NCBI GenBank assembly: GCA_050084515.1
Contig: CM114271.1
Coordinates: forward strand, 15,748,001 to 15,812,000
Reading direction: 5' to 3'
Length of the DNA: 64,000 nt
Origin: Blasia pusilla
Lineage: Eukaryota
Part shown: positions 3,001 through 43,758 of the stretch, piece by piece
Numbering within the stretch: position 1 is the first letter of the stretch
Layout: each line of letters starts with the position of its first letter
Notes under the pieces: generated by a model
What the model saw: only the letters and a program-made list of their open reading frames with translations
Told to the model about the DNA's origin: nothing
Database searches by the model: none
Position numbers and translations under genes: made by a program

Positions 3001-5656
3001 GGCTCCGTCCATGAGACATAGTGTGGGTCATAGTAGAGTTGCCATGCCTCAATCTCCTAGGTATATCAATGAGAGAACTCATGATAATCTTCCATGGGCC
3101 TCCCCTCTAAATGTTGGAACATATCGTTCCATGTTGTAAACGAGTTGAACTCTCTAGAGTTCTTAGCCCGCTGTGAGTCATACCAACTCCTAAACTCTGC
3201 AATGAAGTCGTGTAGCTCTATAGTGCCTACAACACCCGAAAACCTACGCGATCCTCTACCCCGGTCGTCCATCTCGTACGCCCAACTGGTAGGACCACTC
3301 AATGTGTACGGTAGATCACTAACACACTCCTCTATATGCTCCCCTCGTTTGAAGACGACACAGAAGGAGATCGAGGTGGTCTCTCACGTGGAGACCCTCG
3401 AAACCTCGCACCACTCCGGGTAAACCCTCTAGAGCTACTCTTAGGTCCACTACCTCGCCTCTCAAAATCCCAAAAGGACGCCGTAATGCCCTCGTGCCTC
3501 TCTCACACGATCACTCTCAATCTGGTGAGTAATCCCTCAATCACTCAAACTAAACATGCGGCACTCAATCTACACTCTCTCACTGAGACGGTGTTGTGCG
3601 GCAACAAGCACCGTGGTGCGGAAAATCAACCAATCTATTGTCTCATCGAAAAACCATCCTCAACTTTGGACATCCCACACAGGTCTATGTCCCCTAAACC
3701 CATACATCATCGATGCTCCTAGCATCAACACGAAATCCAATATCCCAAATAACTTTCCAATATCAGGAAATTCCTCACACGTGCAGGGTAAGAGACCAGA
3801 ATGGATAACCTGACAATAATGTCGATGTCACTCCTCGGCAACTGCAAATCTTGACCCCAACTCGGTTGTGAAGACAACTTCTCCAATTAGCAAGTCGTAC
3901 TCCTCTCGTACGCACGCTGCTCAAACCTCCTCGATGTGCGGTGCAAGTCCTGCGGTCCAGTGCAGCACTGGCGGCACGGAACGGCTACAAACGGCATGGC
4001 ACTCGGCGGCATACCCTCCTCAATCAGCAATTCACATGCTCTGCACCTTAGTGAAAGGATCGAAGTGAAGGTGGCTCCGCGATTTAGTGAAGGAGTGGCT
4101 GCGAAGCGAGTGCGGTCGCGAGCGCCGGCACGCAATCGGCGGCGCGTTGCGGCTACGGGCATCACGGCATGGTACTGGATCATCATCGAGTGGCTACCAA
4201 TCCCAACATAGCAATATAAAATGAAAACTCAAACATTGTAATCCGAGGTTACCTTCCATCACAGGTTGATGAAGAAACTGCGATGACGGTGGCGGCCAAA
4301 CCAAAGTACGTGGTGGCGGCGCAAGTCAGAGAATCAGCGGTGGTCATCGGAGACCCTCCACTCCGTAATGGCGAAAATGGCAACCAAAGGGTGGACAATG
4401 GCGGAACGCGGCTGTGAGCAGCACTAGGCGATGGCCGCGGGCGACGATGGACCGTGGCCGTTGACGGTGACAGTTGACCGTTGATGGTGACGGATGATGG
4501 TTGATCGTCAATGGTGATGGTTGACCGTCAATGGTGGACCGCTGACGATGACTATGACTATGACGGCCGCCGCTGGCATGGCGGCTGGTTTAGGGTTTGA
4601 ACAATTTAACCCTAAAAATCGCCTAGCAATGGCAGTTTTGCAAGATTGACTATAACTTTCTGCTTGCAACTCCAAATTCTGCACCATTTGTTGCACAACG
4701 TGCACAACTTCATGATCTATGATAGCGTCAAAAATTATTTGGAATCAGACATTTTTGTAAGAACTGACGGGTATTTCCGTAAAGCCCAATTTCTCTTTTA
4801 CTCCTACAAAAAATTTGGCGGCGCTTCCGCGCTGATTTCTCCCAACGAAAATGTAAACATGTGAGAACACAAATCAGCAAGCTGCATGATGCTCCCAAGA
4901 GCACCAGCATGGGGCAATCCTCCCCCATACTAAATCCCTATCCGAAATTGGGCAGCGCTTCCACGCGCCACTCTTCCACACGAAAAATCGGGAAAGGAAA
5001 CATCAGAAGTAAACGGCTCTTGCTGCGGTGAGCACTCCCATGAACCGCTGAAAGGGAAATACGATCCCTTACCTGCAAAACCTGCAAGCGACCAGCAAGC
5101 TCCCCCCTGAAGCCCTCTCACTCACTCATTCTCTCTTTGTAAAATAAGATCCAATCTCTCTCACAACACTACAATTCTCACATGTGTGCACTCTCACATG
5201 TCTCTCTCAATTTCAAACCAAACCCACTCTCCTAAGGAGAGGCTTGGGTTACACACACAAGGCAAACAAGACCATAGCTCCGCCACCTCATGCCAAGAGG
5301 TTCAACAAAGAGAGAATGAGCTCTCAAGCTCTCTCTCCTTGAGGTATACCCCTCCCTCTCCCAAACTCTTTCCATGGTAACCTATGCTCCCAAGTCACCT
5401 CCTTGGCTCTTGACCTGATGTAGGAAGTCAAGGGCCACTTTCCCAAAATATAAAATCAATCATATACTCAAAATGGTACTTACCTAAAATAGTAAGTTCC
5501 TCAATATGGCTCCAAATGAGCTGAAACGAAGGGGAAACCTGCTCTCTCAGGTTTCCCGGGGCCTCAGCAAGTCATCCTCAACCTACTGAGCATGTCCTCC
5601 ACTACTAATGAAGGTGCTCTACTAGATCTCACGGATCTATCATAAAAGACGTGATA
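1..5656 (-). mobile_element. Ty3/Gypsy retrotransposon copy A (5' part: terminal repeat A, leader, gag, protease; runs off the window's left edge just before the DNMT domain), degenerate
   Basis: The reverse complement is collinear with copy B. The 5' terminus at 5656 matches TGTCATGTCTTTTAGGATAGATCC at 13412. The gag knuckle TCWSCGGAHHERDC is in ORF 1450-1665, and the protease motif ILLDSGAKPLM is near 440-470. Bases 1-130 match B 18400-18510. Confidence 0.9.
2015..2837. mobile_element. ~820-bp insertion in gag of copy A, probably an unrelated solo LTR
   Basis: The segment is absent from copy B, where the two flanks are contiguous at ~16405-16420. It can be drawn with TG...CA ends, but boundaries and TSD are ambiguous. 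Confidence 0.6.
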
Positions 5657-8600
5657 CAACAAGCGGCTGGCCATTTCACCCGACCCACTGCTAGTATAAA
5701 GCCTCATCAGTTTCAGGAACTACGAGTCATCATGAAGCTCCCTATCGACATGCTAGTGGATCTGAATTCAGCAAAGGCATCTCATCTTCTTGCTCGACTC
5801 AAAACTGCACGAGAAGACGAAACTATATCTGAAGTACCAGACACCGACTAGCATAGCACTGCCAATGCAATCCATAGTCCACGCAGAGGATCCAATTCTG
5901 GGGTTGCCACATGAAGTAGGTCTAGTTTAGTGCACTTTCAGACAAACAGTGTATCTTTCTATGGCCCACCACTCCCAAAATCTCCCAACAAGCAAAAATG
6001 TACATGATGTTATTAACTCTAGTACAATGTTGCCACCAACCTTCACCATTGTATTCTATTTGCTCTTGTGTATTGCTGCCAATTCTTATTTACCGAGTGT
6101 TATTTATGTTATCCTTGTGATGAGTAGGTACTTTGCTGCTGAGTATCGACTTTAGTGCAATTGGAGCCAGCCACTGAATGTACTAGTCCAATACTCAGTT
6201 CTGCGCATGCCATTCAAACTACCGCATTTAACTATATGTTATAGATCGCAATATTGTGCACATACTAAGTTCTACCAACCTGATAGTTTGTGCCACAGTA
6301 GCATCTTGGCCACTCTATATCTGTACTTTCACTCAGTTACAAGTATAGGTCTACACCAACGCTATATAGCGTGATTTGTGTGTCGGCACTTATGTTTATG
6401 TTATCTCGTGCATATTTTTCAACAACAACATATTTTTCATGTCTGCTGATGCATGTAAAGTTTATTTGTGAGCAAGAATTCATCTTTTCATATGTTTCTC
6501 AAGACATGTGTATTCCACAATAATATAAGCCCGCTTCTGCCAAGTTGTTCACATGTCTGCGTGCAAATGTTTTTGTTTGACAACTCATTTCATTCTGGTT
6601 ATTCAATTCCATACAGTACTGGTTTTGCAACTCTTATAAATATTACATCGTGTTCTTTTTTGTATTGTGTAGAAAAAGAAGCGCGCTGTACTCCTGCAAA
6701 GCAACTTCATGCTTCTGTTAGCAAACAGTGTGGAAGAAGCAAAGTTCCTGCAACTCTGACTTTTGTGGAGCGCGTCAACCATGCTGGAACAAGTCACCTA
6801 CCCACTGTTAGTGTCCAAATACTTGATGAAACTGTTCGTGCCATTGCTACTACTACAACCCAACCTCGCAAGTCTGAGTCACGATACATGGCATTACATG
6901 CTGTGTTAACTAAGCTTGACAACCGAGACTAGGACTACATTGTTGCACTATTAGAGGTGCATCAATGCAGTGATAGCAACGTAGCTAAGCTTCTCAATTT
7001 AAGTGAATATGCTGCTGAAAATTATTTGAAGGGCGCATCTCTTGCTGAGAAGATTTCACAGATGCAAAAACTAATCCAGATGCCAAAACCTACTTAGTTC
7101 ATGGCTCTTACAGTCGTCGCAGGCTCTTTCATGTTGAACGAATGTTTTAGCTAGCTTGTACTGTTCAGACACACCATGTGCCAACCATATACATTATTGG
7201 GAAGTTTTACAATTCTGCCAATATTTGTTTCCAGGATGTTGCTCTAAAGCATGAGCTATTTATGCATATCGTTCACTTAAATACTTCCTACAATGTTCTA
7301 CTATTACTAATTGCTATTGCTTCCCGCGGCTGATTTCTGTCAAATTACGTTTGCATAACCGTTTGTTGTGATTTCTAACTCATAAAGTTATTTCCATATT
7401 CTCCTTTTATCACTTTTCAGTCTACCAACACTACGATTGGGGGTTCCTTGTTACACACCAAACGCACCTTGTTAAGCAGAAATTTAATTTGTTACTATGC
7501 TTACTGAACTCCATTCCGTTTGCCTTGTAGAAGCTATTAGCTTTTTTTCTCTTCCGTTCACACCATAGGTTTGTTATTCACATTCACAACCTTGCATAAT
7601 AAAAAACAAAAAATGTATAGTTATTTCGACAAACTTTCGACCATAAACCCACAACCATCCTAAATTTCTACCACTCCATTTCGCATACTACGCTGTGTTA
7701 CTTACAACACATTACAATCAAGAGCCAAAGTAAATGTTGTCATTGTTACTCTCACCAACAACTTTCTCTCTTAATTACTACAATTATGGCGATATTGCTT
7801 TTATTACATTGCAACATCGTCATACCAATTGAATTACATCTTATGAAAAATGTTTGAAAAATTAAATATACCCAGTGGGAATTAATTATTGATGTTGATA
7901 TAAATTCAAATTTCTTTTCAACGGACTAATAATAACCCGCTGCATAGGAAGTTCGTGAGGAAGTTTGACTCGGATTCAAACAAGCCAAAATCGTAGGGAA
8001 CCTCGTTTAGATAAGCCACTTTCCATCCGCAGTAAAGGTGTGTCTTCATTTTGTGCCGGGTTTCGTTTGGATCTGTCATATGGAGGGCCGGTCAGTAGAG
8101 AGAGGGCTAAGTGTTCTCTAGGTATGTATTCTGTCTTTCGCATTTTCCCACGTTTGCCTTTTCGGCCAAGGCCCACCTCCTCATTTTCGGAAGAATTTGA
8201 TTACGTTTCTCCTGAGACGTTCGGACTTATCTCGTTAGAATTGGTCCCAACATTCAACGGACGAAGTCCAATGGGGACGACAATGATGTGAGATTACAAA
8301 TCTCTGTGTCGATTTGACATTTGAGAACAATGAATAGAGTTTATCAAAGTCTCAGCGGGAATTGAATATCCATACCTGAGTCATATCCACACGGACAAGA
8401 GAAAGAGTAATCAAGCATTTCATGAAAGATAAGCAAAATCGTCGACTTCGTTACGCGTCTATAGCTATAAGTACAATGTCCGCAAGAAGCTGTACCGTTT
8501 GGAAAGAGAGATAATGTCTTAATAGGCCCATCCGCAAAGTGTTGATGTATCCACAACCGGCTCCAGAATTTACATATGAGTATAACACAAATACATCAAA

Positions 8601-15759: not shown

Positions 15760-18700
15760 CATCACGGCGTCCTTTTGGGACTTTGAGCGGCGAGGTGGTG
15801 GACCTGAGAGTAGCTCTAGAGGGTTGATCCGGATTGGTGCAAGGTTTTGAGAGTCTCCATGTGAGAGACCACCTCGATCTCTTTCTGTGTCGTCTTCAAA
15901 CAAGGGGGAGAGTATAGAGGAGTGTGCTAATGATCCACCTTATACATTGAGTGGTCCTAAGAGTTGGGCGTACGAGATGGACGACCGAGATAGAGGACCT
16001 GGTAGGTTTTTGGATGCTATAGGCACTACAGAGCTACACGACTTCATCGTGGAGTTTAGGAGTTGGTATGACTCACAACGGGCTAGGAACTCCAGAGAGT
16101 TCAACCGGCTTACAGCATGGAACGGAATGTTCTAGCACTTAGAGGGAGCACCCATGGACGATTACCATAAGTTCTTGCAGAGATATACCCATGAGATTGA
16201 GGCCTGGAGACTCTACTATGACCCACACTATGTGTCATGGACTGAGACGTTTCCCGATGAGGAGGAGGAGTCAAGAGAGGCTTCTTCCTCTTTCGTGAGT
16301 GATGTGGTAGGAGGGATGACTCGCACTAGAGCAGTTGCACCGTCTAGTCAGGTCCGTCCCAAGTTCAACCCCGTGGTTGAGTTCTTTGCGGAGTTGAGGA
16401 CGGGCTACCAAGGGTACGGACGGAGAAGTTGCGGAGCATCCACGACTTCCAGAGGCACCCAGGTGAGAGTTTGCATAAGGCCTATACCCGCTTGCACAGG
16501 TTGATTAATGTCACTTAGGAGGCGATAGAGGCTCAGACTATCCAGTCATGATACGCGATGCTAGACTAGACCCTGCGGACACGGGTGAGGGAGGGGGTGC
16601 TTCTTATGAACACCTCCCCTATGTTGAGAGGTGTTTTAGGACCGCCAAGAACATTGAGCGGAACATGGCGGAGGAGACCGTAGCCACCATGGGTTTAAGG
16701 CTAGAGCAATCACGATTGCCTGCACCACGAGTGCATCAACGTGGATTCCGAGATAGGTATGAGGCACCACAAGCTTAGGGAGGATATCGGGAGACCCTGC
16801 CATAGAGACGTGCTCCTTCATATGCGGCTCAGCAGCAGCCCCCTATGATTATTTGTTGGTCATGTGGTGAAGCCCATCATCAACGCGATTGCACTCGTCA
16901 GGGTCATGGACGCGTGCCTCTCCACGGAGGAGGAGATGATGCTACACCAAGAGGTTATCAGTGTGACTATTGTCAAAGGTACACTTACACATGCGTTAGG
17001 TGTTTCAGATTGCACCTTGATTTTCGTCCGGACCGAGAGCCAGAGAGCACACTAGAGCGAGTTGCAGGTCCGGGTGGGCCTAGAGGTGGTGCATCAGAAG
17101 GCCCCGTTGGGTGACGAGGAGTTGGATTCGCCCAAGGGGGTGGTGGAGTTTCCCGTGGAGGAGGTAGAGTCCCACCACCTAGACACGTCGAGGGAAACGC
17201 CGGACGTGAGGCTTGGATAGCTGCTCAGATACAGCAACTACAATAGTAGATTGCAACTATGGCATTGAGGTTACCCGATGCCGGATCCGTGGCATCGACG
17301 TCTTATGGAGCTACCAGAGATATGGAGGATCTTGGTTGGATGTGGGGGGTTGCCCAAATATAATTCATCATAGTTGTTACACGTGGAGCAGTCGTAGAGT
17401 TGGATCCACACCAAGGAGGAGCCAGGAAATAGATCAGGCTTTCTCAATCCTTCACGTTGTCTGAGGCGATGAGAACCCCATCGATGGGTCCTGATCAGAG
17501 TTCCCAGAGAGTGGGTGATGTTGTTGGTGTGCAAGCACGAAGGGCGATGGGAGAAGCAAGTGCGACGACTCCTATTGTTGATGCTAAGGAGGAGCATGTG
17601 TCGAGCACGTTGTTGGGGGCGGCCATTGTTGTGTACCGCGCTCCTTTATTTTCTGCTTCCGATGTTATGACTTTGGGAGGTACGTCCGCTGAGGTTTTTT
17701 GGCTGGCCGCTATGCTTTGTGAGCGTGGAGTTGGAGTTCTTGCATCACGTTTAGAGGTGATTGCAGAGGAGGTGATGGATCTGCCCTTGGAGCTGATGTT
17801 TGGGCCATCCACGTCAGATTCATGGTAGGCTGCAGCTGCTAGGATGGCGGAGATGCCCACTAGACCCGCGATAGAGCGTGCCATGGCTTCTCCTGGTGTT
17901 GTTTTGCTGGATAACTGGGGGAGGAGGTCTTCCATATGGTGAGTCCATGAGGTAGAGCTTTTAGTCCGCAGCGCGTCTTGTTGGATTCAGGAGCACAATC
18001 CCTGATGTTGGGGAAAGCGACATCAAGAGGTTTGGGCCTGATAAGAGGCAATGTGGAGCGTTGTCCATTCCAGATACAAACATCCTTGGGTGGACTGAGT
18101 ACCACACAGTATATTACCCGACAGGAGATTGTGGTGAGGATTCGCCTAGGACATCCTATAGATGAGTCCGTGGTGCGAGCGAAGGCGATAGTGATTGATG
18201 GAGAGTCCTACGACGTCTTGGTTGGTAGAGCTGTGTTGTACCCAATGGAGTTTTCCCTGGATTATTGGGAGGAGTCAGCGTCCTACAGAAAAGGATGGCA
18301 TTCAAGTGATGGGCAACTTAGCTCATTACCCGATTGATTCCCAAGTGCACTGATCGAGCACCGGCCAGGAGAGATGGCGACCTTAGTAGCATTTAGCAAC
18401 GCCATCACTTGGCCTAGTGATTTGATTGAGGGACACGTCCATGTAGAGGACACTCCTGTTCCTGAAATTTCTATGGAGAGGAGTGTCATGGTAGCCCCAT
18501 CAGTCCATGGAGGAGATATGCCGCTTTGGGGCTCGATTGAGGAGTTTCGACACTTAGCCATTGACCATGTGGAGACCGCATGGAGGGAGACGTTTACACC
18601 AGAGCGTGACGGGTCAGAGGAACCCAAGGTAGCCGAGAGTGCTATGATGACCCCTTTGGACACCACCCCAATTGTATGGTGCATCCTAGAGGAGGATATT

Positions 18701-21700
18701 CGGGTGTTGAATCTCTTTGGAGGGATCATCACTGGGTTAGCTATTTTTTTGCAGGCAGAAGTACGCGTGCAGCAGTACCTATATGTGGAGATTGATGATG
18801 TTGCGAGGCACACTTCACTTCACCATGTGGCACAGTTATGCCTCCGTTTTCCCAACTTGTTGTCTGCGCCCCCTGTCCAGGGATACTAGAGTTTCCTACC
18901 GAGGGATATTTTATTGTGGGGGGCGCAGTACTTGGAGCGGGTAGAAACCATAGACTTGGTCATTGCTGATTGGCCATGTCAAGGCCACTCGAATGCTAGA
19001 TGGAGTAGCAGATTAGTTGACTCGCGGTCCTTGTTGTTATGGGGGATGATGCGGATCTTGCGATATTCATAGGAGCATTAGTCTCGTTCTCCAGCATACA
19101 TTCTAGAGAATGTGTCGCTTTTGGGCGATTCGAGGTCCCGCGTGGTGACGAGTGCACATCAGGTGCGTGCATGGATAGGCCCGGAAGTGTTGTTGGATGC
19201 GGCAAGTATAGGTTCACGAGCACATTGCCCGCGTCTTTGGTGGACCAACTTGGTGCCACATGAGGTTTTGCGAAGGGCGCATGCGAGAGTGGAGCGTCCC
19301 TTCCATTTGTTGGTGGATTCTATTGTGGATGCACATCGTCGATCACACACAGTGAGGTACGATGATCAACCGCCATTGGCTATGGTCAATAGGATTGGCA
19401 TGCCGCGAGCAGACTTTCCCACATTGGTGAGTTTTCCCGCTTCCTATGCATTCAAGAAGGCCGCGCCAGGCTTGGTTTGGGATGACTAGGTGCAGCGGTT
19501 GGTAGAACCCAACACTGATAAGGGAGAGCGAGTGATGGGATTCCCCACAGGAGTGACGGCAATATCATCACTATCAGAGGCATCACAACGTCATGTCTTT
19601 GGTCACGCAATGGACCTGAACTTCTTGACATGGATTTTCAGCTTAGGAGTAGTTGAGAAATGTCGTTTGAGGTTGCAACAGATTACAGCTGTTGCGTTTG
19701 TGAGCCCCATGCCTACCAAGATGGTTGAGGAAGTGGCTAGGGATGAGACGCGAGGAGATCGACACACCAAGGATGATTGGGAGAGACACCCTTGGACTTC
19801 TTGGGATTTTTTGCAGGTAGGCCAGGAGATGGTAGCCACAACATTGAGCGTGGTTCCGAGTACTGCATATAAAGATGAGATTTTGCAGTTAGCTGCAGGA
19901 GAGCAGTCGAGTTCTGTTTCCCGAGACAGGGTTGCACCATAGCAGCCACCTATACCCGCGCCCGAGAGTCCTACCTTAGTCACAATGGAGACTTGGGAGC
20001 GAGACATGGGCTCTAAGTTGACAGGAGGAGAGCGGCGCCAAATACATCAATTCCTAAGGAGTTATAGGAGTTGTTTTTCATTTAGCATGCAAGAATGGGG
20101 TAAGCTGAAGGGTCTAGGGATCCGCATTGAGTTGTCGAGTGACACGCTGATCTTCCGACGATCCTACAGGTACAACGACATGGAGAAGGCTCTGATTCAG
20201 AGTAGGAGCCAAGACTTGGTTGGAGCAAGACTAGTGGAGATGTCGCATGGAGAGTATGCATCTGCCACTGTCATGCCCGCCAAGAAGGATGTGCATGGAA
20301 ACTGGACAGATAGGCGGATGTGTGGAGATTACAGACCTATTAATCGGTAGACAAAGTCCGATAGGTATGCCATGCTCACCCCTTAGGAGATCTTTGATGC
20401 CATTGGGTATGCAAAGGTCTTCAATTCATTGGATTTGCGAGCCAGATACCATCAGCTTCTTATTAGATTGGAGGACATGCAGAAGAGGGTATTTTGGGGC
20501 ATCGATTCTCATGAGAAGGATTATTTGTACCAATGACGGTTCTTACCATTCAGGTTAAAGAACATCCTGGTTGAGTTTCAGAGGGTTATGGATAGGATCT
20601 TGGCAGGTTTGGATTTTGCTAGGTGTTATATTGATGACATCGTAGTCTTTAGCGCCACGGTTCAGGAGCATGAGCGACATCTAGAGGAGGTGTTCCGATG
20701 ATTGCAGTGACATGGGCTAAAGCTACATTCAAGAAAGTGCAAATTCTTCTACAACCAGATTGAGAACTTGGGTCATACGATATACCTAGAGGGCCTTGGG
20801 TGCAGGAGACAAAGGTAGAGGCTATTTCACGCATTCCACGCCCTACAGATGTGAGTATAGTTCGTGCATTCATGGGATTGGCGAACTTCTATAGACGGTG
20901 CGTCAAGGATTTCAGTTTGATTTCGAAGCCGCTAACCTTGTTGACCAAGGTGGATCAAGAGTGGCACTGGGGGGATGAGGAGGAGAGAGCATTTCAGCTG
21001 CTCAAGGATAAATTGACGTCCGCGCCCATATTGAAGAGACCGATCAGGGGGGATCCTTTCTAGTTGCATATTTATTGGAGCATGTAGGGCTTGGAGTTGT
21101 GCTCCTCCAAGATGATGATGATGGTAGAGAGCTCGTGGTGGAGTCACTTGAACAACGCTGTAGAGGCAAAGTATGGCTCGTATGAGGGTGAGTGCTTGGC
21201 TGCCATGTGGGCTGTCGTACATTTAAGGTGTTATTTATTCGGAGTCCCCTTGACCATCATTACTGATCATCAGCCATTTAAGTGGTTGATGGAGTCCGAC
21301 AAGCTTACAGGGAAGCTTGCGAGGTGGGCTCTTTTATTGCAAGAGTATAACTTCCAGGTGGTGCAAGACCTGGGATGCTCAACCAGGATCTAGATGGTTT
21401 GAGCCGTAAGCCATGCCTGAGTGAGCGAGATGCAAGGGTTTAGGGTTGATGAGGAGTTGGCATGGTGAGAGTGATGAGGATTTGGTGCTAGGATGGCACG
21501 CGTCAACCTATTTGGGTTTGTTGGCTATGGAGAGCCAAATTTCTGAGACTTCGATGGCGAGGTCTAATGGAGAGTCCTTAGATCCAGAGGCCAGTGAGGA
21601 AACGACAAGTGGCCGAGATATTCATGACGATGGAGTGGTCTTGGAGTACCTGCGTACTGGTATGCGTCGCAAGCACAATGGGTGCTAGACAACGGGATCG

Positions 21701-22633: not shown

Positions 22634-23231
22634 AAGGGTGGGAATTGGATTCTTCCTAATCGAGAAGTTTTATCCCATGGAATAAAACTTCTCGATTAGG
22701 AAGAATCCAATTCCCACCCTTATAACTTATAAGCAGGAAAAGCATAACTTATGCTATGTGAAATTAAGGAATATCGTGATCTTATAGCGGGTACTTATAT
22801 GGTCAAGCTTTGGCACCATGCACCTTGCCCATGCATCTCAAGAGAAAAATTAGGAAGAAGAAATTTTTGGTATTGTGAAGGGTCTTTAGATCAGGGGCGA
22901 CGAACAATCTACTCCATAAATCATAAATTTCTCGGAAGGCTTAACTTAAGGATTCTTCCTAATTCTTCTCGATTAGGAAGAATCCAATTGCTTATAAGTT
23001 ATAAGATCACGATATTCCTTAATTTCACATAGCATAACTTATGCTATGTGAAATTAAGGAATATCGTGATCTTATAGCGGGTACTTGTATGGTCAAGCTT
23101 TGGCACCATGCACCTTGCCCATGCATCTCAAGAGAAAAATTAGGAAGAAGAAATTTTTGGTATTGTGAAGGGTCTTTAGATCAGGGGCGACGAACAATCT
23201 ATTCCATAAATCATAAATTTCTCGGAAGGCT
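22634..23231. repeat. Palindrome/duplication cluster
   Basis: An 88-bp near-perfect palindrome (22634-22721), a perfect 38-bp-arm palindrome (23000-23076) and a ~200-bp direct duplication (22741-22941 / 23031-23231). The duplication explains the twin MLCEIKEY ORFs. Confidence 0.9.
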
Positions 23232-24224
23232 TATCATTTTCATTTTCCAAATATTATGCACAACAACACAACGATGATAAATCTATCTTTGAAGATTTTA
23301 CCTCTAATCTTGGCTGCTCACACACACCAAGTTCTAGTGGAGCGCAGTAGCTTCGGATTGGATCAATAATTTTTCTTGATATGTCAGCTCGACTTTTAGG
23401 TGGAAGAGAGATCAAATTCTTTCTGCCTATAAAGTATAGAAGATAGAAGCACAACGTTGAATAAATAGAAAGGTAAAGATGTTTCTCATAGATCAAGGAT
23501 TTGAATTCCCAAACGAGGAGCTTAGCTCATAGTTCAAAGCATAAGGTGTGCGCAATGTATATATACATAACTAACTCTTCATTTTCTCATGATATTGTTT
23601 GCATAGTGGGAGGGAAGATTCATTCTATCTTTTAAGGAGTTCTCACACTGAGTCCTTGAAGATGCAAAGCTCAACCATAGATATTAGGCTTATAGTGCAA
23701 AGCATGTTATGTAGATCTAAATTGAAGAAGTTTACATATCCATAATTAATCAAGAGGTAAAACTCCCCATGAAGCATTCTTAAAATCTTAAGAATGAAGC
23801 CTAATCTAGCTTTTTCCTCTCTATTCGGATGTCTAATATGATTTTATATTCCAAAAGTAAAAAAAGGAATATTTTGTTGGCTACCTTGGAACCTTTTTCT
23901 GTACAAAAATTTCCTCCCTAAGAGCCAAAGTATTACAGCTAGTAAGGATGTGATCTTCCTCTGAAATAAGAATTAGAGTAACTTAGCAACTCCAATTTCA
24001 TAATTAACTATCATCATGGAACCAAATAGTGTTGTGAAGTAAAATTATCCACTATGTATATTGCACTTCTAGTAGTGTTAGAAGGAGTCTTATAAGTATT
24101 AAGTATATTAGCTTAGAAAAATAAAATTTCATGTTTAAACCTCTTTAGGATGCCTCATTTTTTTTGCCCAATTTTAAGAGAAGAAGTAATAAAGGAGACA
24201 TAAGAAATATAAAAGTTAAATAGT

Positions 24225-32035: not shown

Positions 32036-32537
32036 GATGGTTACAGGTTGTTGCCTCTCGTTTGGAGGTGATTGTTGAGGAGGTGGTGGACCTACCCTTG
32101 AAGCATGTGCTCGGGATGTCCTTCACATAGTCATGGTATGTTGCAGCAGAAAAGTTGGTAGATATCCTAGCTAGGCCAGCAATAGGGTATAAGAGTGAGA
32201 GAGATGGCTTTCTCAAGCCATCTTTCTCATGTTAAGCCATAGGAACCCCTCTTTTCCATAGACGTATGTGAGTGTGTAGGAGTTAGGGTGCTAGCATCCG
32301 GATTTCCTCATAGTAGAGGATGGATGTGGTTCGATATGCCGATGCAGATTCAAGAGTGGAGTTTTAGGCCGGGTGAGCCAATTTTACTAATCTGATTTTG
32401 TTATGGGGTCTCAATGTATATGTGTGAGTTTGTTTGGTTTATGGATGGATCGACCCGTGTGTTGGGAAGATCGGTGTTGTGTGGTGTGTAGATATGACCA
32501 TCAATGTGGTTGTGTAGCAATGTGTATACGCACGACA
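32036..32537 (+). mobile_element. Internally deleted fragment of the DNMT-Gypsy family (gag-pol scrap plus partial A and complete B repeat)
   Basis: 32036-32185 matches B ~17745-17880. 32195-32537 matches the reverse complement of copy C's A and B repeats and ends TGTGTATACGCACGACA. Confidence 0.8.
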
Positions 32538-33900: not shown

Positions 33901-33985
33901 GATGGACTTAAAGAGCGTCAAAGGATGCCTTAATTTTCTAGATAATTTGATTTGGTGAAAATTCTTAGAGATAAGCTCTTGAAGT

Positions 33986-34123
33986 TGTCGTGCGCATACA
34001 TATCGCTACACAACATACATCGCTGGACACATCTCCACCACACAACACCGATCTTCCCCACACACGGGTCGATCCACACATGTACAAAAATCAACGCATA
34101 CATATACATGGAGATCATACAAC
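33986..34123 (-). repeat. Terminal repeat B2 of copy C (138 bp)
   Basis: Direct repeat of 34606-34743 with about 11 mismatches. Confidence 0.9.
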
Positions 34124-34603
34124 AAAAATAAAGAGTAGTAAAAATGGCACACCCGGCCTAAAACTCCACTCCTCAATCTACATCGGCATATCGAGCCTCG
34201 TCCATCCTGTGCTATCAAGAAATCCGGACGCTAGCACCCTAGTCCTATCTCATACACATACAAGAGAGGTGCTCCAACGGCCCAACATGAGAAAGATGGC
34301 TTAGGAAAGCCATCTTCCTCTCTTATATAGGGTTGGGAAGAGCCAAAAGGCTCTTCCCCCAAAAATAGCCCTCCCCTTGGTAACCTACGCGCACAGGTTA
34401 CCAAGGGCGGGTGACCTTGGCAACAAGTCACCTGGATGTGAAAGACCTCAACATGAAAGTTGTCGGAAATGACATTCTTGACACAATGGACCTATCCTCA
34501 ACCTCACCCGAAACCATGGGATAAAGTTACACTCAAGATAGTCGGCTGGCTCCTACGCCCTATCCACGATAGATCTCAGCCTATCGGCTACTCAGATGTG
34601 ATA
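34124..34603 (-). repeat. Repeat A2 of copy C (~480 bp)
   Basis: Direct repeat of 43285-43758. Confidence 0.9.
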
Positions 34604-34605
34604 GC

Positions 34606-34743
34606 TGTCGTGCGCATACACATCGCTACACAACATACATCCCTGGTCATATCTACACCACAAAACACCAATCTTCCCCACACACAGGTCGATCCACACA
34701 TGTACAAAAATCAACTCATACACATACATGGAGATCACACAAC
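34606..34743 (-). repeat. Repeat B1 of copy C, immediately downstream of the purine tract
   Basis: On the minus strand it follows CCAGCTAGGGGGGCA (34744-34758) and matches B2. Confidence 0.9.
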
Positions 34744-34819
34744 TGCCCCCCTAGCTGGCAGTTGGATCCTTCCAACTCCAGATAGAAAATATCATATCTC
34801 TATGACATGACCTACTACC

Positions 34820-34966
34820 CTATACACATCTCAGACACATCCATCGTCCCGTGGGAACCACATCACGAAGGAGGGTCAGACATGACATATGCCACCCTGG
34901 AGAAAAACCATCACATACCAACATGGTGGCTGCATCCCTCGCAAATCCGCACAACATACATCTCAA
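34820..34966 (-). other. PHD finger (C4-H-C3) at the integrase C-terminus of copy C
   Basis: RCMLCGFARDAATMLVCDGFSPGWHMSCLTLLRDVVPTGRWMCLRCV matches PHD spacing (one Cys mutated to Phe), including the MLxCDxC..xH..C and P.G.W.C..C hallmarks. Confidence 0.85.
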
Positions 34967-37900
34967 GCCTGCAAATACCACTGCCAAGCTCGGATCCACC
35001 ATTCCGTCTACGTTCGGAAGATGACATGGCGCACGATTGCGCACATGATCCTTCCAAACCATACCATCCCGTCCCTCCAACATGAGGACTCCGGTCGGTA
35101 ATATCTCGCGCACACGTAGGATCGTGCGCCTTGTAGTGACATCTAGCGTCGTGGGTGTCGCCTGCTGTAAATACACGTAATCTCTAGGATGAAACCTCAT
35201 AATCCTTGGACGATAATCTCCTCCACAAATGGTCGCGTACCTCAATGTATCTCTATGTTGAGCAATAGCTAAGTTCTCAAAGGCCATAGGCATAACTCTA
35301 CGAAAAACCTCCGCCCTCTGAGAACATGCTTGTACCCACACATCTGGATCATCAAGATCTAACACCTCCGCCATGTCACGTCGAATCGCTGCAGGTAAAT
35401 TTGGCTCTCTCCCAAAGAGCAAAAATTGTGGTGAAAATGATGCCAAGGATGCCTACCGACTAAAGCGATAACCCATAGCCAACCATGGCAAGTGTAGATC
35501 CCACTCCCTCAACTGTCCTCGCTGCAAGCCATACTTGCGCAATCCTCTCTTCACCGTCCGTACCACTCTCTCCGCCAACCCATCCGCCTCAGGATGATCT
35601 CTGGACGTGGTGCTGTGATCTATCAACGCTTGATCACACAAGGCCTCAAACTCTCCCCTGAACTCGGTACCCTGGTCAGTCAATACCTCCGCCGGTGCAC
35701 CAAAGTGACTAAGCACATGATCTAGAAAAGCATAAGTTGTTCCCTTGCTCGCCTTGTCTAGTAGTGCCACCAACTCTATCCACTTGGAGAAATGCTCCAC
35801 CATGACCAACACGTACCTATGATGACGCCCCGTAAATGGCAAAGGTCCCGCAAAGTTTAAACTCCACCGATAACCTAAACCCATAATAGGCAACGGATGT
35901 AACTGCGAAGTGGGAGCATTGAAGGATGCTCGCACTCTATCACATACTATACATCTGGCCACAAACTGTTGTACCCCAGTATGCATGTCGTGCCACCAAT
36001 ATTGAATCTGGAGTAAGCTATAAGTACGCTTCAGTCCAAAATGTCCCAACTTCTCATGGGCATGTCGCACTACACGTGCTCGTTGGGAAGGATGAGGTAC
36101 CACTCGTATCCTACCATCTCCCCATACCCGCAAAATGTGAGTCCCTTCCCACCTGAACCTCCTAGCTCTCTGTAGGATCCAATCCCGCTCCCTAGCACTC
36201 ACTATGCTCGCTATGACGCCAGTGTGCAAGAACTCCACAACCTCCACGTCATCATGGATATCATGACCACCTGTCGCCTCCTCACTGACCTCCGGATCCA
36301 AAGACTCATCATCCAACCCCACCACTAGAGTCATCACCCGTGGTTGACCTGCCATAGTCAACCAACAAAGATAGGGAGATGCATGCCAATCGGGCACCAT
36401 CTCCTCATCACTCTCTCCGTGCCATCGAGCTCATGTTTCGTCTCTCTGACTTGGACATGGATTATGACTCAACCCATCCGTATCCTGGTTTATACGACTT
36501 GGCTTAGGAACCACCTCAAACTCATACTCCTGTAGTAATAGAGCCCATCTGGCAAGCTTTTCCGTAAGCTTGTCAGACTCCATCAACCACCTGAACGGCT
36601 AATGATCACTGATAAGTGTGAAAGGGTTGCCGAATAAATAGCACCTGAAATGTGTCACGGCCCACACTGCAGCCAAGCACTCTCCCTCGTAGGAGCTGTA
36701 CTTTGCCTCTGCAATGTTGTTTGATCGGCTTGCGTAAGCCACAACAAACTCCCTCTCCTCGTCATCCCTCTGAGTAAGCACTACTCCTAGACCCAACATG
36801 CTCCAATCCGTATGTAACTAGAATGGGCGACCCCTAACCAGTCTCTGTAAAATGGGTGAGGACGTCAACCTATCCTTGAGCTCTTGAAATGCTCGCTCTT
36901 GATCATCTCCCCACAACCAAACCTGATCAAGTCTCGCCAACAAGGTCAAAGACTTTGCGATCGCACTAAAATCCTTGACATACCGTCGATAGAAGTTTGC
37001 CAGTCCAAGAAATGCTCGGACTCGACTCACATCTGTAGGACGTGGAATCTGTGCAAAAGCCTCTACCTTTGTCTGCTGAACGCCTAACCCACTCGGGTAT
37101 ATGGTGTGTCCCAAGTACTCAATCTGCTCTTGAAAGAATCTGCACTTGCCTGGATGTAACTTCAGTCCATGAAAGTTCAATCGCCGAAATACCTCCTCCA
37201 GGTGTCGCTTGTGCTCCTCAAGTGTGGAATTGAAGATAAGAATATCATCTATGTAACATCGTACAAACTCCAAGCCAGCCAGAATCCTATCCATCACTCT
37301 CTAAAACTCTGCAAGCGCGTTCTTCAACCCAAATGGTAAGAACCGCCACTAATACAAGAAATCTCTCCCGAACCGATCTATCCCCCAGAATGTTGTCTTC
37401 TCCTTGTCCTCCAACCTGATAGGAAGCTGATGATAGCCAGCATGGAGATCTAAAGTACTGAAGATCTTTGCATGCCCTACCGCATCAAAGATCTCCTCAG
37501 GAGTAGGCATGGCATACCGATATGACCTCGTCTGTCGGTTGATAGGACGGTAATCTCCACACATCCGCCTATCCGTCCAATTGCCATACATATCCTTCTT
37601 TGCCGGCATGACTCTGGCATATGCATACTCCCCATGTGATAACTCCACAACAAGTCCTAACTCGTGCTCTGAATCAAGGCTCGCTCCATATCGGAATACC
37701 TATAGGGTCGACCAAAGATCGGCGTATCACTAGCCAACTCAATCCGTATTCCGGGACCCTTCAGCGTACTTGGCCAAGTCTCTCATACTGAAGGCAAAAC
37801 AACTGACATGCCCTCTCAAAAACCTATGAACTCGCCCTCACTCTCCTCCTATCAACTTGAGACCTATCACAGGTTCCCAAGTTTCCATCGTGACCTCACT

Positions 37901-38189
37901 CGGAGAGGACGCAACCTCCGGCTTTGGTTGCTATGTAGCAACCCTAGCCACCTCCGCAACAGCCACTCCACTCTGATCTCCTACACCATGCTCCACATCC
38001 AAAAAAATGAACATGTACTACTCTGGCCGCCTTGGCACTCTCTACTCGAACGACGTCCCAAGAAGTCCATGGGTGCCTATCTCTCCTCGCCTACCAATGC
38101 CTGACCAATGCACTGTCAGACCACTGAGGCAATGGTCTAACTCGTGGACATGACGGCGTGGATGACACTTGCATCCGTCTCTACTCAGG

Positions 38190-39040
38190 CTGACTATCCA
38201 CGTGAGACAGTTGAGGTCCATCGCATGCCCCAACACCTATCTCTGGGATGCCTCACTAATCCCTGACACCGCCGTAGTACCGGTAGCAAATCCCATGGCG
38301 GGCTTGCGCTCATCTGCTGTAGGCTCCTCCAATGCTCCGGTCACCTCATCCCAAATCATGCATGGCCCTCCTTGACGAAAGGCATGGGATGCTGGGAAGC
38401 TCACCAACGTAGGTAAGGCTGCCCTCAACTCCCCCACCCTATTGGCCATGGCCAACGGTGGTCTATCATCCCGTGTCACCACGTGAGATTGTCGCCTTGA
38501 GCCCAAAATAGCATCCACTATGAGATGTGGTGCTCTGTGGACTCCATCGTATGCTCGACTCAGTACCTCTGATGGTATCAGGTTCGTCCACCACAGTCGT
38601 GGATGATGGGCACGTGATCCAACTCTCGCCGCATCTAGCAACACAGTAGGTCCCAACCAGGATCTCACTTGATGCACACTCGTCATCACACGTGCACAAG
38701 TGTCTCCCAATAATGGCACGTTCTCTAAAATGTACGTTGGAGAACATGTCTGACTCTCCTGCAAGTGTCATACTACTCGCAGCATCTCCCAAAACATCCC
38801 TGACCTTGGATCCTGCAATCCAAATCCTTGGCCAGCTGATGAATGACCCTAACATGGCCATCCAGAAATCACCAAATGAATGGTGCCAACTCTATCCAGA
38901 TCCTACACCGCCACCAAAGAGATGTCGGCAGGTAGTGTATGCTGATATCCCCATACTGGAGATATCGGCAACAACTCAGGATACCTCTGGACCAATCTCG
39001 CCGGTGCTAATCCCTCCGAAGAGATCTAACACCCTAACAC
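38190..39040 (-). pseudogene. DNMT3-like C5 cytosine methyltransferase domain of copy C
   Basis: VRVLDLFGGISTG; IHLVISGWPC*GHSSAG..GLQDPRSGMFWE (GWPC at 38852-38863); YILENV; LDAARVGSRAHHPRLWWTN; ERKPAMGFATGTT..LGHAMD. About 100 bp covering motif II is deleted. Confidence 0.9.
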
Positions 39041-42000
39041 CCTCCTTTGGGCACTGCCACACAACGGGTGTGGTATCTAGTGGGGTCAACGTCTCCACTC
39101 CAAGAACCCGATCGCCACGTGACTCTCGCTGCTCCGGGATAAAGGCATGACTCCAGGCCTGCCTCACGAGGTTGTTGGCACTCCTCTGTAGCTCTCGAGT
39201 TGTACCCCACAATGGTGAAGAGGTATCGCCAATATGGGAATAGACACCCGCCATGGCCTGTCTCTCCGTGGGACTATCCGCTACTGGGACATCCTCCGCA
39301 TGTGTTTTCCCCTCCAACAACTCTCCAGGCTAGCTAACACTACCTGTGAAAGATGCCGACGTGGTCACAGACTCGCCTCGTGATCGACCATCTCGTCCCG
39401 TAAACTGCACAGGTAATTGACTCATCCGCCCGTCACCTGACCGCCATCCTAGCCGATAAGCAACGGTCTCCTCCCAAAAGTCAAGGATGAATCCTAGAGG
39501 ATATAACACTGTACTCCCCACCAACATATCGTACGACTCAGCTGGTGTCGTAATCGCACGTGTGCCCACCATAGCACTATCCGTCGCATGCTCCGGCTGG
39601 ACTCTAACAACTATCTCCTGTCAAGTCATATACTACGTGAGTGACACGCCCCCAATCGAGGTCTCTATCTGGAAGGGACAGGGCTCAATGTCGGCCTTTC
39701 GTAACCCCAACGCTAAACACGCCGCCTTCCCTAACATCAAGGGTTGCGCTCCCGAATCAAGTAGGACGCGATGCAGGTGGTATACTGTCCTCGTCGGACT
39801 AACCAAGCAAAATACTCCAGCTTGGTTATCCAGTAACACTACTCCAGGTGTCACCATTGCTCATTCTATGGCCGGTCGAGCTGGCATATCTACCAACTTA
39901 CCCGCCGCCGCATGCCATGACTCTGTGGGGAATGTCCCAAGCACCGACTCTGAGGGCAAGTCCACCACCTCCTCAACTACCTCTAAACAAGAAGCACTCA
40001 TCTCTCCATGCTCACACAATATGGCGGCCAACCGGAACACCTCAGTTGGTCCAACTCCCAACGTCGCCAACTCTATGGCGGAAAATAGTGGAGTCTGACT
40101 CACTCTGGTGGCCACCTCCAACACTATGGTCGACAGTGACTCCACTCGAGCCGCAATAGGAGTTGTCACTCCAACTCCTCATGACGTCGACGCACCTGCC
40201 TGAGCTATAGGCACCGTTGGTCGTCGAGGCACCATCAATGGTGTGTGTAGTTCCTCCGATAATGTGAATGATTGTGGAACCCTGGCCTGCCACCCATCGG
40301 TCCCCTCTGGTGGGTCAATCTCAACTCCACCTCTCCATGGCTCGGTGCCGCTTGCAGCACCCCGAGTCACCACTGCAGCTGCCTCAACCTGGGTTGCACT
40401 ACACTTAAACCCCATACTGGCAAGATCCTCACCCGGATCAGGGTAAGAGGTAGAAGGTGGAGGCACACTAGCTGCTCGCGGCTCCGTGCCTTCCCTAAGC
40501 TGCATCATCATCATCATGGCAGCAATCCTCTCCTCCAACTAATCGATGCGTGAGAGAAGTGCCGACTCTGGTGCTCCTGCTCCATCTCCTCTGCCAGGTG
40601 GTGGTCCTCTACCACCACGTCTAGCACGACCGCCCCCAGGCCCTCGGCCTACCCCTAGACGTGCCTCTCGGCGAAGGTCAAAACACCTATCCCTAGTGTG
40701 ACCATATCTGTGGCAATAGTCAACCTGGTGCTGTGGTGGGGCCATCCTCTGTGGATCTTGAGCAATCGGAGGCGCTCGTAGTCCTCTCCCATGCTGTGGG
40801 CAGTCTCTCTGCCTATGGGCCTCTCCACACGTCCAACAAGACCACATCGGTCCCTGTTGGGCAACATATGTAGGTACGGGTCGTTGCCTCATAGGCTCAC
40901 GGTACCCGCCCTGCTCTCTGGGCACACCAGCCCGCTCCCGTGGTACTGGTGCTCGTTGTGGCATGTGTGGGGTCACCCGCACTCGTGGACCCATCGACTC
41001 TCGAGAAAATCCAGCGGTCACTACTTGCTCCTCACTCATGTTGAGCTCAATATGCTCAGACAACTCAAAGACCACCTTCAATGTGGGCTTCGCAGCGTGA
41101 ATCAGTACCGCATCTCGGACTCTCCTCTGTAGTTCTCGATCTAGAACAGCCGTACCAATACTGGACTGACTGCGCCTCAGTCACTACATACGTAGCAATG
41201 ATCATCCTCCTTATCCGTGTGAATGCCTCTCTCAGACTCTCACCCGATCGTCGCTGAAAATCCTATAGACTCTTCATCTTGTCGGTGCGTACGGCCTGGT
41301 AGCTCTTCCCCAACTGTTGTAAGAACTCCACTGTGGGGCTAAAGCTGGGTGGCCCTCTACCACCAAAGGTCTCTGCCATATCGCTTGTCTCATTGCCCTC
41401 CTCTCCATCTAGCCCCTCCAGGCTGATGGTGTGGGTCTCTCTCCTCTCACAATCCCATCATATGCCTCGCGACTATTAGTGGACACATACCTTGGAGCCC
41501 AATACATCCTCCAGGCATCGATCTCTACTGAATATAGTGATCGAAACTCCATGTAGTCATCCATCGGAGGACCCTCTAAGTGCTAGAACAACCCCTTCCA
41601 TGCCATGAAAGGGTTGAATCGTGTCGAGGTCCGTATCTCCTGGAAAGTCGCACCACGTGTCAAACTCCTGGATAAAATCATCTAAGTTCGATGGTGCCCA
41701 CTGCACCCGAGAAATGACGCATGCCCCAATGGCCCATGTCGTCCATCTCCTGCCAAGTACTACTATCTCTGTCTGCGATCTCGTCACCAGACCCAGTGTC
41801 TAGTGATGACGATCCAACCACGGATGGATGTCGAGGTAGCTCCTCACTGGTAACCCCTCGGTATCTCACTCTACTCCGTGTCACACCACTACCACTGCTC
41901 GCACTACCCCGTTCTTCCGAACCCTGGAAGAACGCCGCGATGACAAACCTTGTCTCACCCGCTCAAGCACTCAGACTCACTGAGAGTCTCCCACACTCCT

Positions 42001-43284
42001 CACTAGCTCACCTATGCTAACATCAATCCCGTGATGACATACCCGGCCTCACGTACACTCAACACTCGGGCTCACCATGAGCCTCCTAAATGACTCACCT
42101 AACCTAGCGACACTCTCCTGTCATACATGCGACCCCTACGCGGAAACCGTTGTATAGCCACCAACATGCTACACATGAAAAGAGTCTACACTCGTCACCA
42201 TCACTACACCCACCTAGCACCAGCTACTACCCGATACCCAACACTCTCAATCACACACGACAAGTGCGGGAAAAGGGACTCGAATGGGTAACTTGATCAC
42301 GCCCTCCAACCTACTGCACCGTCAACACTCACTCCTCCATGTGGTACGGAAACCTCTGCAACACGACACTCTCCTCGACCAACACGTCGATCCTCCCGTC
42401 GGCAGATGCAAGCTACCCATCAACATCACCACGTGCATCTCTACCTCTCGCATTCCATCGCAACTCTTGGCGCAAATCACTCATCTTGACACATGTTGCC
42501 AAAGTAGTAGCAATTCAACCTCTGTCAATGACTTTCAAGCTAGCAAATCCCGCCATGAATCACACTCTCGTCTCTAAACCACCAAGTGCCCAAAATTTCT
42601 CCCATTACGTAACCCAAATCAACTACGTATCTCCCCCAACCACGTATAACTCTACCACGTTGGTCCTAACTACGCTCATCCAACTTACTACGTCGGCCCT
42701 CTCTCTTGCTCCCCGACGTCTCTCCATCTGCCAGATTTCCCATCTCCCGGCCTTCTCATCTGCCTATGGCTTACGGTCCCTGCTTCCTAGTTCTGACTGA
42801 GCGTTCCTTCCTCCGCGCCAGTCCCACTAACCCTAGGTACTCCTTTCCTCCCGCTTTCCCTGCACGCTGCCTTCTGTAGCTTCCCACTTACATCTTGACC
42901 CGTTTCCCTATGCAAGGATGTTGCCCTTACTCCCTTGATCCTTCCACCTACACGCATCCCTATGCGCGTGGGTGCCCCATGGGCGTGGCTTAACCGTCCT
43001 TGATAATCCTTCTCACTAACTCCCAGGTCCGACTTCTCCATCCACGTACCTTCTCTCCTCAAGCGCGCATCCCTATGGACGTGACCCCGCTCTTACCCCC
43101 TTTTGTCTTGGCTGGCAGCTCTTGGGCCCGCGTCTCCCTAGAGCATGCGCGTGGCTCCTTCTGACTCTCCCATCCGGAGCCATCCCCTGGAGACACGTGT
43201 CTCCAGGGGCTCCGGACCAAGGCAACTCGCTTGCCTATCTGCAAACAAGCAATTCCCACTAGCCCCCTAACATCATTCTCATGT

Positions 43285-43758
43285 AAAAATAAAGAGTAGT
43301 AAAAACGGCACACCCGGCCTAAAACTCCACTCTTCAATCTACATCGGCATATCAAACCTCGTCCACCCTATGCTATCAAGGAATCCGGACGCTAGCACCC
43401 TAGTCCTATCTCACACACATACAAGAGAGGTGCTCCAACGGCCCAACATGAGAAAGATGGCTTAGGAAAGCCATCTTCCTCTCTTATACAGGATTGGGAA
43501 GAGCCAAAAGCCTCTTCCCCCAAAAATAGCCCTCCCCTTGGTAACCTACGCGCACAGGTTACCAAGGGCGGGTGACCTGGTCAACAAGTCACCCGGCTGT
43601 GAAAGATCTCAACATGAAAGTTATCAGAAACGACGTGTCTGACACAATGGACCTATCTTCAACCTCATCCCACACTGTGGGACAAAGTTACACTCAAGAT
43701 AGTCCGATGGCTCCTACGCCCTATCCACGATAGACCTATCAGCTACTCAGATGTGACA
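43285..43758 (-). repeat. 5' terminal repeat A1 of copy C (~474 bp)
   Basis: Matches 34124-34603 and is not accompanied by a B repeat. Confidence 0.9.

Follow-up and report, generated by a model that had tools for sequence, protein, structure and literature searches.

The window analyzed here, a 64-kb stretch of Blasia pusilla DNA, carries three retrotransposon copies, A, B and C, which we delimited by self-comparison and by tblastn within the window. Among the three, tblastn detected a DNMT3-like C5 methyltransferase domain (DNMT) in copies B and C alone; copy A ends before the position of the domain. The features outside the DNMT are as follows.

1..5657, minus strand: copy A, which belongs to the subfamily of copy B and is cut by the window start within the linker between protease (PR) and DNMT
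13411..~22640, plus strand: copy B, with leader, gag, PR, linker, DNMT, RT-RNase H (RT-RNH) and integrase (INT); 3′ repeats degraded
15992-17915, plus strand: copy B gag
17927-18409, plus strand: copy B PR
20231-21431, plus strand: copy B RT-RNH
21458-22272, plus strand: copy B INT, C-terminus and PHD finger deleted
43756..33983, minus strand: copy C, a Ty3/Gypsy element of about 9.8 kb
43285..43756, minus strand: copy C 5′ A repeat, 91.8% identical to 34124-34601
39816..41725, minus strand: copy C gag with CCHC knuckles, aligning to residues 10 to ~620 of the Marchantia ORF1 model P0007
39066..39815, minus strand: aspartic protease region of copy C, with its PR seed matching the part of P0155 covered by PF13650, and PR-DNMT linker
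34823..37894, minus strand: copy C RT, RNase H, integrase (HHCC and rve core) and PHD finger, in one frame
34960-34826, minus strand: C-terminal PHD finger of the copy C integrase (PF00628, score 25.2 bits, cut-off 24)
33983..34743, minus strand: copy C 3′ block B-A-B (B 34743-34603, A 34601-34124, B 34123-33983; the B pair is 91.5% identical)

Three Gypsy copies in the window

Copy C retains the complete Ty3/Gypsy set, consisting of a gag with CCHC knuckles, PR, RT, RNase H and an HHCC and DDE integrase, a set also present in its relatives, and self-comparison of its sense strand gave the repeat plan A-coding-B-A-B. The ORF2-type region of this copy is interrupted by 13 in-frame stops (codons 37945-34820) but stays free of frameshifts throughout its 1042 codons. 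Pfam detected no tyrosine recombinase (phage-integrase domain) in copy C, the integrase of which matches PF00665 (rve) and PF17921. A chromodomain was not found at the C-terminus of the copy C integrase; the PHD finger occupies that place. The same PHD finger (34826-34960, minus strand) is common to a large clade of Gypsy polyproteins of green-algal and bryophyte type. A 3′ A repeat was not found in copy B by blastn, and the 3′ end of this copy is degraded; about 167 nt (22272-22439) are present where copy C has about 813 nt, and the integrase C-terminus and PHD finger have been lost.

Copies A and B are 76-83% identical at the nucleotide level. Between B and C, blastn found a match only in RT-INT (72%), and tblastx aligned the two collinearly from gag through integrase. 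The first-pass annotation had described copy C as having different A repeats and a different leader, and indeed region 41700-43800 of copy C gave no blastn match (word size 7, E ≤ 0.01) to B 13300-16100 or A 2000-5800. It had also linked the end of copy A to the linker upstream of the DNMT, which agrees with the 77% match of A 1-234 to B 18515-18307, about 64 codons before motif I.

Several smaller features accompany the three copies. A piece of about 40 nt at the 3′ end of each B repeat (33985-34025, 34606-34641, 22568-22608 and 11603-11641) is 85-97% conserved across subfamilies that are otherwise unalignable, making it a candidate cis-acting signal. A tandem pair (22688-22943 and 22965-23233, 89%) lies downstream of copy B. 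A short C-like fragment at 32052-32537, about 80% identical, consists of an internal piece matching C 39996-39866 fused to an A-repeat end and a B repeat in opposite orientation. An unrelated RT-like fragment at 28543-28920 on the minus strand, 38-47% identical to the RT of copy C and of P0146, is probably another Gypsy remnant.

The methyltransferase domain of copies B and C

The DNMT stretches of the two copies, and the motifs within them, are located as follows; motif I, DPRSGMFWE, ENV and RLWWTN of copy C were read from its three-frame translation.

38186..39065, minus strand: degenerate DNMT3-like C5 methyltransferase domain of copy C, recognized by its motifs and by Pfam with stops read as X
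39029-39000, minus strand: copy C motif I, LDLFGGISTG
38999..39000, minus strand: copy C deletion site, with about 95 nt missing relative to copy B 18737-18829
38863-38831, minus strand: copy C motif IV, GWPC(stop)GHSSAG, with a TAG at 38851-38849, the codon directly after PC
38812-38786, minus strand: copy C DPRSGMFWE
38725-38717, minus strand: copy C motif VI, ENV
38599-38582, minus strand: copy C RLWWTN
18665..19645, plus strand: copy B DNMT3-like domain, in one frame interrupted by four TAG stops; motif IV reads DWPCQ
18707-18736, plus strand: copy B motif I, LNLFGGIITG
18968-18997, plus strand: copy B motif IV, DWPCQGHSNA
19106-19114, plus strand: copy B motif VI, ENV
19232-19249, plus strand: copy B RLWWTN

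All five motifs that had been quoted for copy C at the orthologous site were recovered by three-frame translation of the minus strand. The replacement of Gln by a stop after GWPC was likewise borne out, although the DNMT contains four in-frame stops (38905, 38851, 38770 and 38239) rather than this one. The loss of about 95 nt directly 3′ of motif I removes 31 codons, comprising the tail of motif I and all of motif II with its acidic residue, and introduces a frameshift; in the alignment the missing segment is retained by copy B and by all 19 bryophyte-type homologues described below. Pfam recognized no methylase in the raw DNMT ORF pieces taken separately; a match appeared once stops were read as X (PF00145, 32.3 bits against a cut-off of 22). 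The domain is 66-68% identical to its counterparts in Calypogeia and Marchantia. With four stops and no motif II, the DNMT of copy C is a pseudogene from which no active enzyme is possible.

The DNMT of copy B is also dead, with four in-frame TAG stops (18887, 19070, 19079 and 19487). Motif IV reads DWPCQ in this copy and GWPCQ in relatives. Treated in the same way, copy B scored 23.8 bits with PF00145, relatives scoring 30-36 bits, and its match to the Calypogeia protein had an E value of 3e-118. Catalytic motifs IV (PC), VI (ENV) and VIII (R.R) are present in both copies, and neither has the AdoMet-binding motifs I-II in an intact ORF. The match of each stretch, B and C, to the methyltransferase family is far beyond chance.

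A search with the copy B DNMT returned 22 longer proteins, 19 of them of bryophyte type at 39-60% identity (13 from Marchantia polymorpha, one from Calypogeia fissa, two from Sphagnum and three others) and the remaining three distant environmental polyproteins (30-34%). The bryophyte-type proteins contain GWPCQ in 16, ILENV in 19 and RLWWTN in 14 of the 19 cases; RLWWTN is missing from five, each a truncated model or a variant.

Degraded repeats form a mosaic across the window and both DNMT stretches contain stops, so that one might regard the domain as a host DNMT3 pseudogene lying merely inside or beside nested transposon debris. This explanation has a negligible probability in our estimation. 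Stops aside, copy B has one uninterrupted frame from 18050 to 20300, running from the protease side through the DNMT to the RT side, copy C is collinear with it, and self-comparison revealed no repeat boundaries flanking the DNMT. Furthermore, the same fusion, in the order PR-DNMT-RT, is found in Marchantia, Sphagnum, Closterium and environmental polyproteins, and this order also holds for Calypogeia.

Sequence and structure searches agreed on the class of the enzyme. DNMT3A/B/C accounted for 29 of the 30 matches when the copy B DNMT was searched against PDB sequences, and for the 29 best of 48 matches when P0003, an intact close relative, was used, followed by plant DRM and bacterial M.HhaI/HaeIII. 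In alignments to DNMT3 the motifs run from I to VIII and then X, an unpermuted order unlike that of DRM. The AlphaFold model of P0003 had a pLDDT of 84-95 over the DNMT (residues ~305-640), and in a Foldseek search of the PDB with this model all top matches listed were DNMT3A/B/C catalytic domains, with TM scores on the target of 0.79-0.83 for catalytic-domain chains and E values of about 1e-16. The modelled fold thus corresponds to a complete DNMT3 catalytic domain. Animal DNMT3A/3B/3C catalytic domains are therefore the best match by both sequence and fold, with motifs I to X unpermuted. The element domain differs from them in its low identity (22-24%), in being embedded in a retrotransposon polyprotein and in the lack of the N-terminal PWWP/ADD reader families, none of which Pfam detected, whether in pieces of the window or in the seven relatives searched. 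From sequence and predicted fold we assign the domain of B and C to the DNMT3 class of C5 cytosine methyltransferases.

The domain could be retained not for methyltransferase activity but in a non-catalytic role, for example binding DNA or AdoMet or acting as a structural spacer. The Dnmt3-like domain of a Klebsormidium Gypsy element produced no methylation in yeast, a result termed inconclusive by its authors in the available text (PMC5890265), and motif IV is EC instead of PC in the three chlorophycean proteins examined (P0022-P0024). We nevertheless consider such a role unlikely, as the bryophyte-type branch keeps GWPCQ and ILENV at the frequencies given above, the modelled fold is that of a complete catalytic domain, and in an alignment of 25 polyproteins ENV is invariant, with conservation of 90% or more for the Gly of motif I, the Glu of motif II, the catalytic Cys and the Arg of motif VIII.

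Selection on the DNMT was assessed from codon alignments of B and C built from ungapped tblastx pairs, with stop-bearing codons dropped. The DNMT formed one ungapped match of 272 codons with 57% amino acid identity; the 264 codons left after removal of stops are 59% identical in amino acids and 61% identical in nucleotides. The latter figure, together with the restriction of the blastn match to RT-INT, accords with the description of copy C as clearly diverged in nucleotide sequence. Identity at codon positions 1, 2 and 3 was 0.63, 0.80 and 0.42, respectively. The dN was 0.33 and the NG86 dS was undefined, since synonymous sites are saturated; this saturation made NG86 and YN00 unusable on the in-frame DNMT, PR and gag, and we used four-fold sites instead. 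Identity at 25 of 72 such sites in the DNMT corresponds to a distance of 1.5 and a dN/dS of about 0.2 or less. Maximum likelihood gave 0.03, an unreliable value given the accompanying dS of 11. For comparison, dN/dS was 0.13 for RT+RNH and 0.11 for INT, and the same DNA shifted by 1 or 2 bases, an out-of-frame control, gave 0.8-2.8. A DNMT ratio near 1 in this comparison with RT/INT had been named beforehand as grounds for abandoning the idea of a selected domain; the ratio obtained is well away from it. The amino acid rate of the DNMT is about twice that of RT/INT and like that of gag and PR. The DNMT was under purifying selection during the divergence of B and C, and because both copies are pseudogenes, we infer this selection for their active ancestors and not for the window copies themselves.

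Four-fold sites were identical at 60 of 169 positions in gag-PR-DNMT and at 75 of 165 in RT-RNH-INT (Fisher p=0.07), which hints weakly that divergence or codon constraint differs between the two ORFs. The DNMT did not differ significantly from RT+RNH+INT in four-fold divergence (Fisher p=0.24). Neither of these differences being significant, they do not establish separate histories for ORF1 and ORF2.

Relatives and origin of the domain

When the integrase and PHD finger of copy C (P0144) were used as a query, 131 polyproteins were retrieved at E ≤ 1e-10, nearly all with PHD fingers, including proteins from Klebsormidium nitens, Closterium, Chlamydomonas, Pleodorina, Tetrabaena and Monoraphidium and Tetstr1-labelled records. 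The E values for PHD-bearing Gypsy proteins extended to about 1e-43 and those for ordinary Gypsy proteins began at 1e-31. A search with the distant DNMT of P0022 added 171 further proteins, Haematococcus among them. No lycophyte, fern or seed-plant proteins were present among the matches listed by these word-limited searches, which is weak evidence of absence. The relatives in liverworts, Sphagnum, Closterium and many chlorophytes are annotated merely as hypothetical proteins.

Domains were mapped with local HMMs on 247 collected proteins, and the DNMT was located ahead of RT in 22 of them and between RNase H and integrase in 137. The latter arrangement is seen in the chlorophycean and environmental group P0022-P0143, which has a related DNMT at that position. 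Among the 194 proteins with both RT and INT, the DNMT precedes RT in 21, follows it in 131 and is not seen in 42, most of which begin shortly upstream of RT.

Two RT+INT trees and one DNMT tree were built, all without bootstraps and with some long branches flagged. The first RT+INT tree (FastTree) had 99 rows, comprising 62 of the 63 rows without a DNMT after RT (the one left out has no DNMT and has INT before RT), 34 of the 131 DNMT-after-RT rows (12 named and 22 random), P0008, and copies B and C. The second (IQ-TREE quick, mixture model) had 50 hand-picked rows, and the DNMT tree (FastTree) had 59. Both RT+INT trees separated the PHD clade from four ordinary Gypsy outgroups (support 100) and placed the RT-RNH-DNMT-INT form in a single chlorophycean clade (support 100), with the PR-DNMT-RT form distributed across the remaining, earlier-branching groups (Tetstr1, Closterium and bryophyte type). 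Copies B and C are sisters in the RT+INT trees (support 96 and 94), where they adjoin Marchantia (99), and in the DNMT tree (94), where they fall inside the bryophyte-type clade (100). The DNMT tree recovered the same main groups as the RT+INT trees and divided the two architectures by one split (98). The position of the root, and with it the ancestral domain order, is tentative.

Convergent capture, by which each subfamily separately took up a host DNMT3 that landed by chance between protease and RT, has some precedent. DNMTs were gained independently by dinoflagellate and charophyte retrotransposons in the account given in the available text of PMC5890265, and the wider clade studied here has the domain in two different positions. 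Such a history is nonetheless very improbable for B and C. Their linkers are homologous on both sides of the DNMT, a downstream TAG is common to both, their DNMTs are sisters within the fully supported bryophyte-type clade, and the element DNMTs match one another (E 1e-36 to 1e-118) far better than they match solved DNMT3 structures (1e-6 to 1e-10). Because the DNMT tree mirrors the RT+INT tree, one old acquisition followed by inheritance with the element fits best and is the history that we favor from the sequence comparisons. The proposal of the first-pass annotation that the domain is old, stably inherited and selected, and not a chance capture, is in line with its constant position across taxa, the congruent trees and the low dN/dS. 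We conclude that copies B and C are very probably decayed members of two subfamilies of one green-lineage Ty3/Gypsy lineage with an inherited DNMT3 domain. A PHD finger closing the integrase marks this lineage, as do, in copy C, the split direct repeats A-coding-B-A-B.

Elements of this kind have precedents. According to the available text of the 2018 survey, KnitGypsy-Dnmt3 of Klebsormidium nitens has a Dnmt3-like domain in its Gypsy polyprotein (de Mendoza 2018, PMC5890265), repeats in the order A-coding-B-A-B (legend of its Fig. 4c), and a DNMT with Ka/Ks < 0.2 and conserved key catalytic residues. As compared by this published description, the window elements are likewise of LTR/Gypsy type with an unrearranged Dnmt3-like domain under purifying selection and with conserved key catalytic residues, and copy C shares the repeat order. 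Unlike KnitGypsy-Dnmt3, they have liverwort and Sphagnum proteins, not Klebsormidium proteins, as their nearest named relatives. The one Klebsormidium protein retrieved, P0214 with RT, INT and PHD, is 40% identical to the INT-PHD of copy C; its gene model has no DNMT, and the RT+INT trees group it with that half of the clade in which the DNMT precedes RT. The available text of PMC5890265 mentions neither a conserved TAG nor a PHD finger ("PHD" has 0 occurrences), and neither Marchantia nor Sphagnum appears in its species table or in that text.

The same source, in the part available, describes SymbioDIRS-Dnmt3 of Symbiodinium, with a Dnmt3-type domain in Pol, and regards its acquisition as independent (PMC5890265). 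By that description the window elements resemble it in the location of the Dnmt3-type domain within Pol, in their split direct repeats, in purifying selection and in the occurrence of two domain orders per group, and differ from it in that SymbioDIRS-Dnmt3 is a DIRS element with a tyrosine recombinase and they have a DDE integrase (PF00665 and PF17921). In the available portions of two further sources, DNMT3 embedded in retrotransposons is mentioned "as previously reported" (PMC12344493) and "streptophytes (Gypsy-DNMT3)" are named (preprint 10.64898/2026.05.21.726589). In the literature searched, to the extent of the texts available, Gypsy-DNMT3 elements are described from one alga, Klebsormidium, and we found no description of such elements in bryophytes.

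The window elements also resemble chromoviruses in having a Gypsy integrase with a C-terminal chromatin-reader module, the reader being a PHD finger (PF00628) and not a chromodomain. Chromoviruses are not known to carry a DNMT.

Gypsy-DNMT3 is thus already known in kind; copies B and C are new, decayed members with bryophytes as their nearest named relatives, and the present survey suggests that the kind is much wider than one alga.

Conserved stop codon, expression and biological meaning

An in-frame TAG is found at a homologous position between the DNMT and RT of both copies.

37931..37933, minus strand: in-frame TAG in the DNMT-RT interval of copy C, in the context ..GGGTTGCTACA TAG CAA CCA..
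19940..19942, plus strand: in-frame TAG in copy B, homologous to C 37933-37931, in the context ..GGGTTGCACCA TAG CAG CCA..

The two stops occupy the homologous codon in the same frame, 19 codons upstream of a METWE motif, and in both copies CAR CCA follows directly 3′ of the TAG. The ORF1 models of Marchantia, Calypogeia and others stop 60-90 residues past the DNMT, and the ORF2-type proteins P0145-P0152 start shortly upstream of a "TWEP" motif. The TAG is therefore a putative boundary between two ORFs that share one frame, ORF1 (Gag-PR-DNMT) and ORF2 (RT-RNH-INT-PHD). We take its TAG CAR CCA context to be a leaky-stop motif, and the conserved TAG looks like a programmed boundary in such a context. 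Gammaretroviruses use a Gag-UAG-Pol read-through design, and plant viruses use a UAG-CAR-YYA leaky context. Copies B and C resemble these viruses in having an in-frame UAG between polyprotein parts followed by CAA or CAG and CCA, with the difference from gammaretroviral Gag-UAG-Pol that their stop is located past PR and DNMT, not past Gag.

A possible mode of action follows this layout. ORF1 would end at the conserved UAG in its CAR-CCA context, and occasional read-through, as the conservation and context of this stop suggest, would extend the product by RT-RNH-INT-PHD. This arrangement would yield the DNMT at Gag-like levels, and the protease of the element would either release it or leave it fused. 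Using AdoMet, the DNMT could then methylate cytosines in the cDNA of the element itself or in the new insertion, and the PHD finger of the integrase may steer integration by reading histone H3 tails.

Two raw RNA-seq runs with the same species label contained 1543 and 1498 reads on 34750-43280 at a likeness of at least 85%. Only three of these 3041 reads (two and one, respectively) were at least 99% alike to copy C, and hence the transcripts stem from other copies. The first mates were nearly all on the plus strand, so that the family RNA is apparently in sense (minus strand), assuming the usual stranded-library convention. RNA depth was 17-55 over ORF2 and 1-12 over both ORF1 and the DNMT; the higher ORF2 depth could reflect a separate ORF2 transcript or mapping bias. 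For 38100-39400, the stretch around the copy C DNMT, an index of sequencing runs listed no RNA run. In DNA contig runs, 9200 and 100714 pieces matched copy C, and summed word depths ran into the thousands. In the host species the family is abundant and is transcribed, and the window copies are inactive. Part of the copy C leader (42445-43014) had a DNA depth of only about 1-7 as against thousands elsewhere, and no RNA reads covered it in the two runs; this stretch is private to copy C or to a very small subfamily.

The 55 in-frame stops in A, B and C comprise 35 TAG, 18 TGA and two TAA codons, and 25 of them lie where the homologue has Gln, Arg or Trp. Compared with the family reads and contigs, copy C has T/A for C/G more often than the reverse, at 299 as against 160 places in the comparison X1. 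This pattern of stops and substitutions is one of C-to-T decay and fits deamination of methylated cytosines.

A more far-reaching history is possible, and as a whole we hold it to be doubtful. It envisages a PHD-finger Gypsy family spanning the green lineage, with a single DNMT3 gain before the chlorophyte-streptophyte split in the order PR-DNMT-RT. As part of this joint scenario, one chlorophycean branch would have moved the DNMT to give RT-RNH-DNMT-INT, and in land plants the bryophyte-type enzyme would end a Gag-PR-DNMT ORF upstream of the conserved leaky UAG.

Cytosine methylation is the main weapon of the host against transposons, which makes a transposon with its own de novo methyltransferase counter-intuitive, and selection has maintained this DNMT over a deep divergence. 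Handles on the dosage of the enzyme and on the landing site of the element are offered by the conserved stop and by the PHD finger of the integrase. Should the more far-reaching history hold, an abundant, transcribed family would be supplying a de novo methyltransferase at Gag levels, which could mark the methylome of the host.
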